Assembly: GCA_030390025.1 (NCBI GenBank)
Contig: CM059431.1
Coordinates: forward strand, 132,496,001 to 132,560,000
From: Squalus acanthias
Lineage: Eukaryota
DNA: 64,000 nt
Direction: 5' to 3'
The translations under genes and the position numbers were made by a program. This document shows, one piece after another, positions 43,421-49,164 of this stretch (within the stretch, counting starts at the first letter, position 1; each line of letters begins with the position of its first letter). The notes beneath the pieces were generated by a model. The model did not search any database. It was not told the DNA's origin and saw only the letters and a list, made by a program, of their open reading frames with translations.

Positions 43421-44796
43421 GGGGTATGGTGGCATAGTGGTTATGTTACCGGACTAATAATCCAGAGGCCTTGACTAATGATCCAAAGACATGAGTTCAT
43501 AATACCACTATTGTAGTTTGCAAATTTGAATTCAGTTAATTAAATAAATCTGGCATAAGAAGATAGTATCTGTAATGTGGATTGTTGTAAAAACCCAACT
43601 GGTTCACCAGTGTCCTTTAGGGAAGGAGTCCTGCCATCCTCACCTGGTCTGGTCTATATGTGACTCCAGACCCACAGCAATGTGGTTGAGTCTTAACTGC
43701 CCTATGATATGGCCTAGCAAGCAAGTTGTTTAAAACTGCAACAAAAAATAAAAATAAAACCAGACAGACCACTTGGCATTGACCGAGGCATTGGATTTGG
43801 ACCCTGAAAGTCCTCCTCACTAACATCTGTGGACTTTTTTTTTATTGGGAGAGCTGTCCCACAGACATACTCACAGAATCATACATATCAGCCAAAGTCC
43901 CAGAATCCTCCATCACTATCCCTAGGTATGTTCTGTCCCACTGGCAGGACAGACCCACCAGAGGTGGTGGCACAGTGTCATACAGTTGGGAAGGAATGGC
44001 CCTGGGAGTCCATAACATTGGGTCAAGCAACAACAACAACATTGGCAAGGAAACCTCCTGCTAATTACCCCCTACCGCCCACCTCAGCTGATATACTCCT
44101 CTATATTGAACACCACTTGGAAGAAGCAAGGACACAGAATGTACTCTGGATGGGGGACTTCAATATCCATGTGTGGCTCAGTAGCACCACTACTGACCGA
44201 GCTGGCCTAGTTCTGAAGGACATATCTGCCAGGCTGGGCTTGCGGCAGGTGATGAGAGAACCAACCCGAGGGAAAAACCTACTTGACCTTGTCCTCACCA
44301 AACTACCTGTCGCAGATGCATGTGTCCATGACAATATTGGTCAAAGTGACCACAGCACAGTCCTTGTGGAGATGAAGCAGGACACCTCCTGCTGATTACC
44401 ACCTACCGTGCTCCCTCAGCTGATGAATCAGTACTCCTCCATGTTGAACACCACTTGTAAGAAGCACTGACAGTAGCAAGGGCACAGAATGTACTCTGGG
44501 TGGGGGACTTCAATGTCCATCACCAAGAGTAGCTCGGTAGCACCACCACTGACTGAGCTGGCCGAGTCCTGAAGGACATAGCTGCCAATCTGGGTCTGCG
44601 ACAGGTGGTGAGAGAACCAACACGAGGGAAAAACCTACTTGACCTCGTCCTCACCAATCTACCTGTCACAGATGCATCTGTCCATGACAGCATTGGTAGC
44701 AGTGACCACCGCATGGTCATTGTGGAGACGAAATCCTGTCTTCACACTGTGGACACCCTCCATCGTGTTGTGTGGCATTACCACCATGCTAAATGG

Positions 44797-46270
44797 AATA
44801 AGAACATAAGAAATAGGAGCAGGAGTAGGCCATTCGGCCCTTCGAGCCTGCTCTGCCATTCAATGAGATCATGGCTGATCTTCTGCCTCAACTCCATTCA
44901 CCGGCCCCATCGCCATATCCCTTGATGCCCTTACTAGTCAAAAATCTATCAACTTCTGTTTTGAATATACCCAATGACTGAGCCTCCACAACCCTCTGGG
45001 GTAGAGAATTCCAAAGATTCACCACCCTCTGTGTGAAGAAATTTCTTCTCATCTCAGTCCTGAATGGCCTACCCATTATCCTGAGGCTGTGGCCCCTGGT
45101 TCTAGACTCCCCAGCTAAGGGAAACATTCTCCCAGCATCCACCCTATCAAGCCCTGTAATAATTTTGTATGCTTCAATGAGATCCCCTCTCATTCTTCTG
45201 AATTCAAGAGAATACAGGCCTAGTTTACTCAATCTCTTCTCATACGACAGTCCCGCCATCCCAGGAATCAATCTCGTGAACCTTCGTTGCACTCCCTCTA
45301 TGGCAAGTATATCCTTCCTTAGGTAAGGAGACCAAAATTGTACACAGTACTCCAGGTGTGGTCTCACCAAAGCCCTATATATTTGGAGAAAGACTTCTTT
45401 ACTCCTGTACTCAAATCCTCTTGTAATGAAGGCCAGCACACCATTTGCCTTCCTAATGGCTTGCTGCACCTGCACATTCACTTTCAGTGACTCATGTACA
45501 AGGACACCCAGGACCCTTTGAGCATCTGCATTCCCCAATCTTTCACCATTTAGGAAATACTCTGCCTTTCTGTTTTTTCTACCAAAGTGGATAACTTCAC
45601 ATTTATCCACATTATATTCCATCTGTCATGTTCTCACCCACTCACTGAGCCTGTCGAGATCCCCTTGAAGCCTCTTCACATCTGACACTGCCACCTAGCT
45701 TTGTATCATCAGCAAATTTGGAAATGTTACATTTAGTCCCCTCATCCAAATCATTGATATAGATTGTGAATAGCTGGGGCCCAAGCACCGATCCTTGTGG
45801 TACCCCACTAGTCACAGCCTGCCATCCTGAAAAAGACCCGTTTATCCCTACTCTTTGTTTTCTGTCTGTGAACCAATTCTCAATCCATGCTAGTATATTA
45901 CCCCCAATTCCATGTGCCCTAATTTTGTTCACCAATCTCTTGTGTGGGACCTTATCGAAGGCCTTCTGAAAATCCAAATACACCACATCTACCGGTTCCC
46001 CTTTGCCTACTCCACTAGTTACATCCTCAAAGAACTCGAATAGGTTTGTTAAACAGGATTTCCCTTTCATAAATCCATGTTGACTCTGCCCAATCTTACT
46101 ATTAGTTTCTAAGTGCCCAGTTATTGCATCCTTTATAATTGATTCCAGCATTTTCCCAACTACTGATGTGAGGCTAACAGGTCTGTAGTTCCCCGTTTTT
46201 TCTCTCCCTCCTTTCGTAAGTAGTGGGGTTACATTTGCTATCCTCCAATCTGCAGGAAGCGTTCCAGAAT
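44797..46270 (-). mobile_element. Young 5'-truncated CR1
   Basis: ORFs 45642..46151 ([35 protein letters not shown]) and 44888..45622; ATAAGAA tail. Confidence 0.95.
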
Positions 46271-47931
46271 TGTGTTGTGTGGCGCTACCACCGTGTTATA
46301 TGGGATAGATTCAGAACAGATCTAGCAGCTCAAAATTGGGCATCCATGAGGTGCTGTGGGTGATTAGCAGCAGCCGAATTGTATTCCACCACAATCTGTA
46401 ACCTCATGGCCCAGCCTATCCCTCACTTTACCATTGCCATCAAGCTAAGCAACCAACCATGGCTCAATGAGAAGTGTAGAATGCCATGAGCAGCACTAGG
46501 CATTCCTAAAAATGAGGTGCTAACCTGGTTAAGCTATCACATGCTAAACAGCGGAAGCAGCATGCTATAGACAGAGCCACGTGATCCCACAACCAACGGA
46601 TCATATCAAAGCTCTGCAGTCCTGCCACATCCAGTTGTGAATGGTGGTGGACAATTAAACAACAAACAGGAGGAGGAGGCAGCATCAACATCCCCATCCT
46701 CAATGATGGCGGAGCCCAGCACATAACTGCAAAAGACAAGGCTGAAGCATTCACAATCATCTTCAGCCTGAAGTGCCAAGTGGATGATCCATCTCAGCTT
46801 CCTCCTAAGGTCCCCACCAACACAGATGCCAGTCTTCAGCCAATTCAATTCACTCCACGTGATATCAAGAAATGGCTGAGCGCACTGGATACAGCAAAGG
46901 CTATGGGCCCCGACAACATCCTGGCTGTAGTGCTGAAGACTTGTGCTCCAGAACTAGCCGCGCCTCTAGCCAAGCTGTTCCAGTACAGCTACAACAGTAG
47001 CATTTACCCAACAATGTGGAAAATTGCCCAGGTACGACCTGTCCACAAAAAGTAGGACAAATTCAATCCGGCCACTTCCCGCCTGATCAGTCTACTCTCA
47101 ATCATCATCAAAGTGATGGAAGGTTTCGTCAACAATGCTATCAAGCGGCACTTACTCACCAATAACCTGCTCACTGATGCTCAGTTTGGGTTCCGCCAGG
47201 ACTACTCGGCTCCAGACCTTATTACAATCTTGGTCCAAACAAGGACAAAAGAGCTGAATTCCAGAGGTGAGGTGAGAGTCACTGCCCTTGACATCAAGGC
47301 AGCATTTGATTGAGTGTGGCACCAAGGAGCCCCAGTAAAATTAAAGTCAATGGGAATCAGGAGGAAAACTCTCCACTGTATTGAGTCATACCTAGCACAA
47401 AGGAAGATGGCTGTGGTTGTTGAAAGCCAATCATCTCAGCCCCAGGTCATCGCTGCAGGAGTTCCTCAGGGTAGTGTCCTAAGGCCAACCATCTTCAGCT
47501 GCTTCATCAATGACCTTCCCTCCATCATAAGGTCAGAAGTGGGGATGTTCGCTGATGATTGCACAGTGTTCAGTTCCAGTCACAGCTCTTCAGATAATAA
47601 AGCAGTCCGTGCCCACATGCAGCAAGACAGCATCCAGGTTTGGGCTGACAACTGGCAAGTAACATTCATATCACACAAGTGCCAGGCAATGACCAGCTCC
47701 AACAAGAGAGAGTCTAACCACTTCCCTTTAACTGGACCAGCCACATAAATACTGTGGCTACAAGAGCAGGTCAGAGGCTGGGTATTCTGCAGTAAGTGAC
47801 TCAACTCCTGACTCCCCAAAGCCTTTTCACCACCTTCAAGGCACAAGTAAGGAGTGTGATGGAATACTCTCCACTTGCCTGGATGAGTGCAGCTCCAACA
47901 ACACTCAAGAAGCTCGACACCATCCAAGACA

Positions 47932-48726
47932 TAAGAACATAAGAAATAGAAGCAGGAGTAGGCCATTCGGCCCTTCGAGCCTGCTCCGCCATTCAATGAG
48001 ATCATGGCTGATCTTCTGCCTCAACTCCATTCACCGGCCCCATCGCCATATCCCTTGATGCCCTTACTAGTCAAAAATCTATCGACTTCTGTTTTGAATA
48101 TACCCAATGACTGAGCCTCCACAACCCTCTGGGGTAGAGAATTCCAAAGATTCACCACCCTCTGTGTGAAGAAATGTCTTCTCATCTCAGTCCTGAATGG
48201 CCTACCCTTTATCCTGAGGCTGTGGCCCCTGGTTCTAGACTCCCCAACCAAGGGAAACATTCTCCCAGCATCCATCCTATCAAGCCCTGTAATAATTTTG
48301 TATGCTTCAATGAGATCCCCTCTCATTCTTCTGAATTCAAGAGAATACAGGCCTAGTTTACTCAATCTCTTCTCATACGACAGTCCCGCCATCCCAGGAA
48401 TCAATCTCATGAACCTTTGTTGCACTCCCTCTATGGCAAGTATATCCTTCCTTAGGTAAGGAGACCAAAATTGTACACAGTACTCCAGTTGTGGTCTCAC
48501 CAAGGCCCTATATAATTGGAGTAAGACTTCTTTACTCCTGTACTCAAATCCTCTTGTAATGAAGGCCAGCATACCATTTGCCTTCCTAATGGCTTGCTGC
48601 ACCTACACATTCACTTTCAGTGACTCATGTACAAGGACACCCAGGTCCCTTTGAACGTCTGCATTCCCCAATCTTTCACCATTTAGGAAATACTCTGCCT
48701 TTCTGTTTTTTCTACCAAAGTGGATA
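47932..48726 (-). mobile_element. Young 5'-truncated CR1 with a 6-bp TSD
   Basis: ORF 48021..48602; AAGACA at 47926-47931 and 48727-48732; nearly identical to 44797-45595. Confidence 0.95.
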
Positions 48727-49164
48727 AAGACAAAGCAGTGCGCTTGATCTGCACCTCAGCCACCACCTTAAACATTCACTCCCTCCACCACCAGCGCACC
48801 ATGGCTGCAGTGTGTACCATCTACAAGATGCACTGCAGCAACTCGCCAAGGCTTCTTTGGCAGCACCTCCCAAACCTGCTCCTCTACCACCTAGAAGGAC
48901 AAGGGCAGCAGGTGCATGGGAACACCACTATCTCCAAGTTCCCCTCCAAGTCACACACCATCCTGACTTGGAAATATATCATCATTCCTTCATTGTTGCT
49001 GGGTCAAAATCCTGGAACTCCCTCCCTAACAGCACTGTGGGAATACCATCACCTCATGGACTGCAGCCATTCAAGAAGGCAGCTTACCACCACCTTCTCA
49101 AGGGTAATTAGGTAATAAATGCTGGCCTTGCCAGCGACACCCATATCCGGTGAATGAATAAAAA

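Follow-up and report, generated by a model that had tools for sequence, protein, structure and literature searches.

A Zenon LINE of Squalus acanthias headed by a tRNA-type sequence and probably transcribed by Pol III

Layout of the element in the window

The window analysed here is a stretch of 64,000 nucleotides of the Squalus acanthias genome, in which positions 43421-49164 are occupied by a 5.7-kb mosaic of pieces differing in age. The core of the mosaic is a decayed 3.3-kb Zenon LINE; a duplicated stretch of endonuclease and two CR1 pieces in reverse orientation interrupt it, and a second head lies elsewhere in the window. The features are listed below with positions in the window and, where applicable, in the element (element nt).

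43412..43417, plus strand: left copy of a probable 6-bp target-site duplication (AAGTCT) in the host L2; other L2 copies are continuous here
43422..43514, plus strand: head derived from a tRNA (element nt 1-92), resembling tRNA-Gln and having the anticodon-type hairpin twice; its boxes also occur in the five published shark and ray consensuses
43515..43703, plus strand: body of the 5' region, conserved and non-coding; element nt 93-296
43704..43740, plus strand: decayed hairpin with a 7-nt anticodon-like loop (putative pairing) and an in-frame GCT 12 nt behind; candidate AUG-free start signal
43738..44377, plus strand: region of the basic leader and the endonuclease (element nt 335-1081), damaged by deletions and frameshifts; 87% identity to the family majority
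44379..44800, plus strand: second endonuclease segment, element nt 727-1148; 95.5% identity to the majority
44798..46270, minus strand: 3' portion of a nested CR1, young and canonical, outside the element proper
46269..47931, plus strand: broken region of linker plus reverse transcriptase; element nt 1110-2870
47929..48727, minus strand: second nested CR1 3' end, outside the element proper; 97.6% identity to the first CR1 piece
48729..49164, plus strand: ORF end (stop near 49108), 3' UTR containing AATAAA, and a short A tail; element nt 2867-3308
49166..49171, plus strand: right copy of the probable target-site duplication (ATGTCT), where the host L2 resumes
27411..27557, plus strand: second head, element nt 1-156 only
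27561..28066, minus strand: 5'-truncated Zenon copy, element nt 2803-3308, whose tail adjoins the second head

An earlier note on this DNA had described a LINE that begins with a tRNA-derived head and lacks ORF1, and this layout is borne out: the head starts at 43422, the A box lies at 43430-43440, the endonuclease codons run from 43813, ORF1 is absent, and the supposed degenerate B box is a damaged B box at 43493-43505. The break reported in the host L2 is likewise real, as other L2 copies are uninterrupted across the insertion point, and the AAGTCT and ATGTCT joins are compatible with a 6-bp target duplication with one mismatch; four additional bases separate the left duplication from the head start. 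The description of 43421-49164 as a single clean ORF does not stand, because the interval contains the second endonuclease segment, the two reverse CR1 pieces, frameshifts, and stops, and the native element measures about 3.3 kb. The second endonuclease segment is likely derived from another, younger copy. The second head is present at 27411-27557 as claimed; since it ends at element nt 156 beside a reverse Zenon 3' end, it is not in itself evidence for a partner SINE. Twin-priming inversion as its origin is ruled out by an unsuited orientation.

The headed family and its short derivatives

By its sequence, the window element is an elasmobranch Zenon LINE, abundant in the shark genome, and the name is based on identity to published Zenon 5' ends. 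Five elasmobranch Zenon consensuses, SquAca_Zenon-1, CarCar_Zenon-1, ScyCan_Zenon-1, RhiTyp_Zenon-1, and HypSab_Zenon-1, have been reported (Stuart et al., 2026; PMC13343379), and all five open with the same head in the supplement of that paper. Similar to the family here, they are 3.24-3.31 kb long, lack ORF1, contain APE and RT, and have a poly(A) tail, and the first 400 nt of SquAca_Zenon-1, compared by eye, match our majority sequence nearly letter for letter. A quick RT tree containing no named Zenon reference groups the element with moth, crab, and unnamed proteins (SH-aLRT 97), apart from CR1 and L2 of the same genome. The main text of Stuart et al. mentions neither tRNA nor promoter nor polymerase, its supplement does not mention tRNA, and these parts of the paper give no account of the origin of the head, TTTT avoidance, the missing AUG, or short derivatives. 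The head has already been published as raw consensus sequence and was not recognised there as tRNA-type; a tRNA-type reading of the Zenon head was not found in searches of an open-access library of papers.

The junction between head and ORF is a family trait and not a one-off or chance event. The comparison of copies proposed in the earlier note bears this out: 28 of 29 other junction copies in the S. acanthias genome begin at the head, and 26 of 30 copies found via the endonuclease alone extend into it. A 34-letter motif spanning the head end and leader start has 4,806 exact matches against 0 for a reversed control, and a one-off LINE-into-SINE insertion is rejected on these three counts. Neither an ORF1 nor an alternative shared 5' UTR was found among the full-length copies examined. 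The 5' end is sharp across 38 heads, with bases mixed through nt 0 and conserved from nt 1 on, and the 5' truncations of endonuclease-anchored copies are scattered within the head. Furthermore, head and ORF are bridged by contigs in sequencing runs of three other organisms (the matches listed among such runs were all contigs, with no RNA run among them), and the junction is identical in the five published consensuses, which cover sharks and a ray. No intact copy was found among 40 long loci examined. In a search beyond sharks, 24 of 80 metagenome loci had the ORF start with upstream DNA, and none of these 24 matched the head or the A/B-box pattern; a search of viral contigs found no relative.

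The short partner considered in the earlier note exists and behaves as an internal deletion sharing both ends with the LINE, in 12 of 29 head matches and with at least eight different joins. These short forms are approximately 400 bp long (374-457 bp) and contain the full head; in each of the 12 short loci, the left side of the deletion falls at nt 326-345 and the right side at nt 3158-3215, and one group of joins has 994 exact matches. The short forms retain LINE leader of varying extent and their right-hand part begins within the ORF, which points to a direction from LINE to SINE. Persaeus, the SIDE of a lepidopteran Zenon (PMC6740152), likewise has both ends in common with its LINE, the middle deleted, and variable break points. 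It is described as having no tRNA homology or Pol III promoter, whereas the short forms here have tRNA homology and a putative promoter, and by this tRNA head they resemble SINEs, unlike Persaeus.

The same data bear on the reading that the window copy had itself suggested by being a mosaic of differently aged pieces, namely a passive or chance fusion in which an abundant SINE received 5'-truncated LINEs by insertion or by template switching, and no headed element was ever autonomous. The absence of clear target duplications around most full-length copies agrees with it (a simple search around 28 such copies found no consistent ones). By contrast, a single fixed junction in thousands of copies, the same in five species, truncations scattered within the head, and short forms with variable LINE leader and entry inside the ORF all oppose such a fusion, which is largely refuted and to which we assign a very small probability.

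Signals for transcription and translation

The tRNA character of the head is evident from an anticodon arm and a T-loop in common with tRNA-Gln of the same genome, and Gln(TTG) gave the best score among six tRNA types tested (z 5.7). The A and B boxes are retained in 5/5 published species consensuses, one B box being short of one letter. ARAGORN called a tRNA in one of eight heads, an Rfam scan of one head at E<=1 matched neither tRNA nor IRES, and folds of the head were not significant against shuffles (z -0.05 to 0.91). Zenon of coelacanth and of hagfish, inspected by eye over the first 400 nt, lacks the head at its 5' end and contains T-runs there. The head bears the SINE2 hallmark of tRNA-derived sequence with boxes A and B, but the other hallmarks of that class, short length and no coding sequence, are found in the 374-457 bp derivatives only and not in the 3.3-kb ORF-bearing long form. 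The conserved head at a shared junction with A/B boxes supports the captured tRNA promoter proposed in the earlier note, with use as a promoter predicted from sequence features.

Several known elements are comparable. The T+ SINEs B2, Dip, and Ves (SINE2; PMC8466645) share with this element a tRNA head, boxes A and B, AATAAA, and a short A tail, and a variable T-run like theirs is seen in part of its ends, although SINEs are 100-700 bp and non-coding whereas the long form here is 3.3 kb with APE-RT. RTE-1_DAn and elements related to it (Kojima, 2018; PMC5786205) are a precedent, by their description, for a LINE containing tRNA-like sequence, and RTE-1_DAn belongs to the RTE clade, unlike the Zenon element. 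SacSINE1 and the CmiSINEs (PMC5499810) are also tRNA-headed repeats of cartilaginous fish; by description rather than sequence they are set apart by a tail in common with L2-2_CM, not Zenon.

The sense strand is poor in T-runs. TTTT is absent from the 3.3-kb majority of 33 copies and from a second majority of 30, against 13-16 occurrences of AAAA in the two, and 63 aligned copies (178 kb) have 25 TTTT events, each in at most two copies. In the same genome, L2 has nine TTTT per 3.0 kb and CR1 six per 2.8 kb. The observed/expected ratio of TTT in the ORF is 0.30 (P 0.0005); for 25 control ORFs it lies between 0.75 and 1.20 (this control omitted 3 of the 24 metagenome loci, which have short frames). 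T content is 19% versus 22-37% in controls, and Phe content (1.85%) is below that of 119 of 120 homologues. Under null models, the absence of TTTT has P 0.02 (base composition), 0.10 (synonymous shuffle), and 0.18 (dinucleotide), with P 0.03 in a separate test, and the TTT depletion is not significant under the dinucleotide model (P 0.14). Taken alone, the absence of TTTT is a modest Pol III signal.

At the 3' end, AATAAA is present in 63 of 69 ends. A runs of 3-13 occur in the 56 scored ends, in keeping with the poly(A) tail of Zenon, and 13 ends were unscored. The element has a T-run at this end alone, behind AATAAA: the A tail is preceded by a single T in 27 ends and by at least two in 29 of 56 (two or three in 17, four or more in 12). 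The succession of AATAAA, terminator or its rudiment, and A tail that marks T+ SINEs may therefore apply to part of the ends. The T-runs can have been lengthened by slippage after insertion, and the single T may be part of a second AATAAA.

The majority ORF comprises 973 codons from nt 329, so that only 328 nt precede the frame, in line with the lack of ORF1 in Zenon. Pfam Exo_endo_phos and RVT_1 were matched on two actual copies, as expected of a single ORF with APE and RT. No in-frame AUG lies upstream of the endonuclease, the first Met being codon 287. The sole nearby AUG, at nt 357, is out of frame; it is present in 5/5 published consensuses and missing in 30 of 63 copies here. An upstream TTG is rejected as a start, as TAA comes next in most copies here, and so is the ACG behind the conserved GCT, which is ACA or AAA in four published consensuses.

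These observations bear on a second reading, in which a captured tRNA or SINE head now serves Pol II, whose promoter would lie within the conserved body (nt 150-330), something else accounts for the T-poor strand, and translation begins at the out-of-frame AUG, followed by a -1 shift, or at a near-cognate codon; as part of it, the boxes would persist through the short derivatives or because TFIIIC or chromatin makes use of them. As a rule, LINEs are transcribed by Pol II and carry AATAAA and poly(A) (PMC10886601). By eye, the body is almost invariant from nt 170 on among the five published consensuses and better preserved than the tRNA portion, all five have the AUG at nt 357, and the absence of TTTT is non-significant in two of four null models. 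Pol II would have no need to avoid TTTT, yet all 25 control ORFs contain it, 7-49 times each; the long form itself maintains the boxes although adjacent head bases vary, and nearly half the copies here lack the AUG. We consider this Pol II reading, boxes included, unlikely.

A candidate for an AUG-free start is a hairpin with an anticodon-like AGC loop, followed 12 nt behind by an in-frame GCU that is the first conserved in-frame codon. By analogy, the loop might pair with this GCU and set the frame, as weakly suggested by the likeness to PKI of the dicistrovirus intergenic IRES (PMC10516663), which also has an anticodon-like loop and an in-frame triplet right before an AUG-less frame; a dicistrovirus-type IRES has been proposed as a possibility for non-LTR elements (PMC3894237). 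The candidate pseudoknot differs from that IRES in having just 3-4 base pairs and no covariation, and the Rfam scan at E<=1 gave no match for an IRES with nested PKII and PKIII and an L1.1 loop. Of six shared variant sites at the hairpin, five are at unpaired positions and the sixth retains a G-U pair. No covariation supporting loop-codon pairing was found: for the central pair, 12 double changes stand against 4,806 unchanged, and 4 of the 12 are complementary, as under neutral decay. The spacing is in frame in 40 of 42 copies, a regularity that may have arisen as an AAT repeat slipped; the published SquAca_Zenon-1 consensus departs from that frame by one base.

The lack of structural support for an IRES (Rfam, fold z-scores, covariation) is in favour of a third reading, split labour, in which the Pol III RNA is the template and protein is supplied in trans by some copies, whose capped Pol II transcripts arise by host-promoter read-through or splicing. 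The boxes, TTTT avoidance, and 3' T-run would then be explained without translating an uncapped RNA. Furthermore, cis preference is not strict, given the amplification in trans of the non-coding short derivatives. Against it, a capped transcript would still have no in-frame AUG ahead of the endonuclease, and the union of ORF and head kept across sharks and a ray is simpler if the coding RNA copies itself. Split labour appears quite improbable to us.

Proposed mechanism and meaning

On balance, an ORF with a tRNA-type head, no Pol III stop T-runs, and no normal start codon suggests a likely Pol III-made protein-coding mobile element. We favour, with some confidence, the reading that the window holds a decayed elasmobranch Zenon copy whose tRNA head is the Pol III promoter for a full-length RNA translated without AUG or cap. 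Head, body, ORF, and tail are mobilised as one unit, with 5' truncations inside the head. TFIIIC would bind boxes A and B, and Pol III would initiate at nt 1 and transcribe 3.3 kb, reading through because the sense strand is free of TTTT. A T-run located at the 3' end or past it would halt Pol III, and AATAAA would direct the addition of the A tail, as in mammalian T+ SINEs. The AGC-loop hairpin might then pair with the in-frame GCU to set the frame. As established for LINEs, the APE-RT protein would copy the RNA into the genome, 3' end first. Deletions joining the head to the final ORF codons produced the SINE-like forms of about 400 bp, some of which were amplified, presumably mobilised by the LINE protein. 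The boldest version of this reading, a wholly tRNA-mimic autonomous vertebrate retrotransposon with a 3.3-kb uncapped Pol III mRNA, a pseudoknot start, and deletion products that are SINEs in one step, is doubtful.

In the textbook division, LINEs are protein-coding Pol II units and SINEs are non-coding Pol III parasites, and Pol III is thought to serve short non-coding RNAs only. If the favoured reading is true, this split would be broken by a LINE that sharks and rays have retained, in which a Pol III head is combined with an ORF free of terminators and of a start AUG. It would also provide a natural example, in a vertebrate, of a long mRNA made by Pol III and of translation without a cap, and a route for the origin of SINEs by deletion from their own partner LINE.

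Organization and identity of the window copy

The span 43421–49164, which the earlier note had read as a single ORF, does not hold one; its 5.7 kb comprise pieces of a 3.3-kb Zenon element, numbered here along the majority sequence of aligned Squalus acanthias copies (nt 1–3308), and reverse CR1 pieces, as follows.

43422–44377, forward: element nt 1–1081, mapped to the element, 87% identity to the family majority
44379–44800, forward: element nt 727–1148, second endonuclease segment, 95.5% identity to the family majority
44798–46270, reverse: CR1 piece inside the Zenon span
46269–47931, forward: element nt 1110–2870, 90–95% identity to the family majority
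47929–48727, reverse: CR1 piece inside the Zenon span
48729–49163, forward: element nt 2867–3308, 91% identity to the family majority

The A box (43430–43440) and the damaged B box (43493–43505) lie where they had been claimed, and the tRNA-derived head continues straight into endonuclease codons, reached at 43813. The reported break in the host L2, and a probable 6-bp duplication at the joins, are supported by other L2 copies, which read through the insertion point as uninterrupted sequence. The differing identities of the pieces (87, 95.5, 90–95, and 91%) indicate that the second endonuclease segment likely derives from another copy. Two unlike versions of nt 1110–1148 flank the block 44379–46270, made up of this younger segment and the CR1 next to it; DNA-level copying from a different locus may thus have brought the block in. 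The second head copy at 27411 is present; it stops at nt 156, where it abuts a 3′ piece of the Zenon family in reverse orientation. Elsewhere in the window, ARAGORN calls genes for tRNA-Thr(AGT) at 38558–38631 (+) and tRNA-Lys(CTT) at 39759–39831 (+), and a long tandem array of a ~20-nt pyrimidine-rich unit (49909–51200) is the source of several spurious long frames.

Endonuclease and RT are detected in the element protein by Pfam, and the nearest database proteins are ~43% identical, most of them unnamed. In a quick tree, the RT groups with moth, crab, and unnamed proteins, separate from CR1 and L2 of the same genome. Zenon consensuses from four sharks and one ray are provided in the supplement of PMC13343379; in its accessible portion, all five open with this tRNA-derived head, SquAca_Zenon-1 matches the element majority almost exactly across the first 400 letters, and the coelacanth and hagfish consensuses have different 5′ starts, not this head. 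The accessible main text makes no mention of tRNA, promoter, or polymerase, and states that elasmobranch Zenon elements are absent from a repeat repository.

The tRNA-derived head and its junction with the frame

The head has an anticodon arm and T-loop in common with a tRNA-Gln of the same genome, and a second similar hairpin is situated between the A and B boxes. By sequence likeness, a tRNA-Gln isotype is likely rather than settled, because only six tRNA types were tested against the head, among which Gln(TTG) scored highest. An Rfam search with the head gave no recognition, and ARAGORN called a tRNA in one of eight heads. By eye, both boxes are retained in the available sequences of five species, with variable adjacent bases. 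A 7-bp complement is found between nt 88–94 (the tRNA 3′ end) and nt 224–230 in the body (window ~43510 and ~43630), and comparable pairing is possible, by eye, in the five published consensuses as available. Alternating tRNA-Gln(CTG)/(TTG) genes, spaced ~600 bp, occupy G000:C21:3337426–3413453 of the studied genome (275 exact matches genome-wide). In a distant LINE from metagenome data (L204:959–1047), relaxed ARAGORN also places a tRNA-Gln-like fold immediately upstream of the ORF; this is probably chance, given the 30 TTTT runs in that ORF.

A junction query yielded 7,321 candidates in the genome, and all 40 that were scored match. The predicted recurrence of the head at the same junction was observed in 28 of 29 other fetched loci, which reach head nt 1–17 (three with an internal deletion), and a 34-letter motif across the head end and leader start has 4,806 exact matches in the genome. 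With the head alone as query, 17 of 29 loci continue into the LINE (two being duplicates) and 12 go to the tail. The endonuclease-anchored check proposed earlier was run by protein (120,325 loose candidates; 30 fetched, one being the query's own locus): 10 of 30 copies start at nt 1–5, 16 are cut at nt 50–337, and four further in, and their printed flanks are mutually unlike by eye. Truncation points inside the head show that it belongs to the copied RNA. Conservation starts sharply at nt 1, bases being mixed through nt 0 (38 heads), copies are 92–97% identical to the family majority, and contigs bridge head and ORF in sequencing runs X11, X19, and X20 from three coded organisms. An intact frame was found in none of 40 long loci. 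Given these counts, a chance fusion of head and LINE deserves hardly any credence. The LINE may first have acquired its head by switching template to a tRNA or SINE, before sharks and rays diverged.

Near-identical copies at L002, L007, and L161–L163 lie within a satellite array and were multiplied along with it. Many copies among loci L031–L050 lack 14–20 nt flanked by a pair of short direct repeats (nt ~495–520), a loss that shifts the frame at the endonuclease start and may reflect recurrent slippage or a non-autonomous subfamily. In runs X1, X4, X9, and X10, mapped on L184:2412–2550, nt 190–330 are covered far deeper than nt 1–160, suggesting that relatives whose 5′ portion has diverged are more abundant.

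Short internally deleted forms

The earlier note had proposed a partner SINE derived by internal deletion and sharing both ends, and all 12 short loci are indeed head–tail joins. These loci (374–457 bp) join head nt 326–345 to nt 3158–3215, the 3′ side falling within the ORF ahead of the stop at nt 3248. At least eight different joins occur among the 12, and one join group has 994 exact matches with at least three recurring variants. The leader and coding remnants vary, which means that the short forms arise by repeated deletion from the LINE. Persaeus, the short element of lepidopteran Zenon, is likewise deletion-derived, but has no tRNA head, unlike the short forms here (PMC6740152).

Putative signals for transcription and translation

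The majority of 33 copies contains no TTTT across 3.3 kb vs. 16 AAAA runs, and the second majority, of 30 other copies, also contains none. Vertebrate Pol III terminates at four or more T. Individual copies carry 25 TTTT runs in 178 kb, each in at most two of 63 copies, and the same-genome majorities of L2 and CR1 contain nine and six, respectively. For the absence of TTTT alone, three null models gave P values of 0.02, 0.10, and 0.18, and a fourth gave 0.03. TTT is depleted more than TTTT (five observed vs. 10.9 by synonymous shuffle, P 0.006; vs. 16.6 expected in a separate test, P 0.0005), and its scarcity is not significant under a dinucleotide model, which absorbs TT scarcity (P 0.14). 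Controls, comprising 21 metagenome relatives and four same-genome CR1 frames, gave TTT observed/expected ratios of 0.75–1.20 and 7–49 TTTT, and are T-richer. Phe constitutes 1.85% of the element protein, below 119 of 120 homologues.

The tails carry AATAAA (63 of 69), then a T-run, then a short A run, with the T-runs placed at the very end of the element; the T-run is 1 T in 27 tails, 2–3 in 17, and 4–17 in 12, 13 being unscored. This order resembles that of T+ SINE tails, whose terminators are shortened by copying and lengthened later (PMC8466645). Post-insertion slippage could produce the same tail picture. Transcription of the element by Pol II is rather improbable, and Pol III is the likelier polymerase.

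The frame of 973 codons opens at nt 329, downstream of in-frame stops, and its first Met is codon 287, past the endonuclease. It begins with an Arg-rich leader, and several relatives have a similar leader after a Met. An out-of-frame AUG at nt 357 is present in 33 of 63 copies and absent in 30, and occurs in all five published consensuses as available. A hairpin at nt 297–322 has a 7-nt loop centred on AGC, an in-frame GCT lies 12 nt behind it in 41 of 42 copies, and the GCT-to-leader distance is a multiple of three in 40 of 42. By eye, the AGC loop and GCT triplet are identical in the available consensuses of all five species. Four of the five keep the frame downstream of GCT; the remaining one lacks a single base that the copies here have. 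The arrangement resembles the anticodon–codon mimic (PKI) of dicistrovirus intergenic IRESs (PMC10516663), and a PKI-type start has been proposed in general terms for non-LTR elements (PMC3894237). A loop/GCT pseudoknot is a tentative candidate for an AUG-free start signal: its three base pairs are easily found at random, folding z-scores for the region are flat, and no compensatory excess is found at the central loop/codon pair (12 double changes vs. 4,806 unchanged, the neutral level). Five shared variant sites lie unpaired, and a sixth retains a wobble pair.

A division of labour, with template RNA from Pol III and protein supplied in trans from Pol II transcripts, is still less probable than Pol II transcription. 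From its sequence, the element would more probably employ a single RNA, made by Pol III and self-translated. As a Zenon element, it most likely works like a protein-coding SINE.
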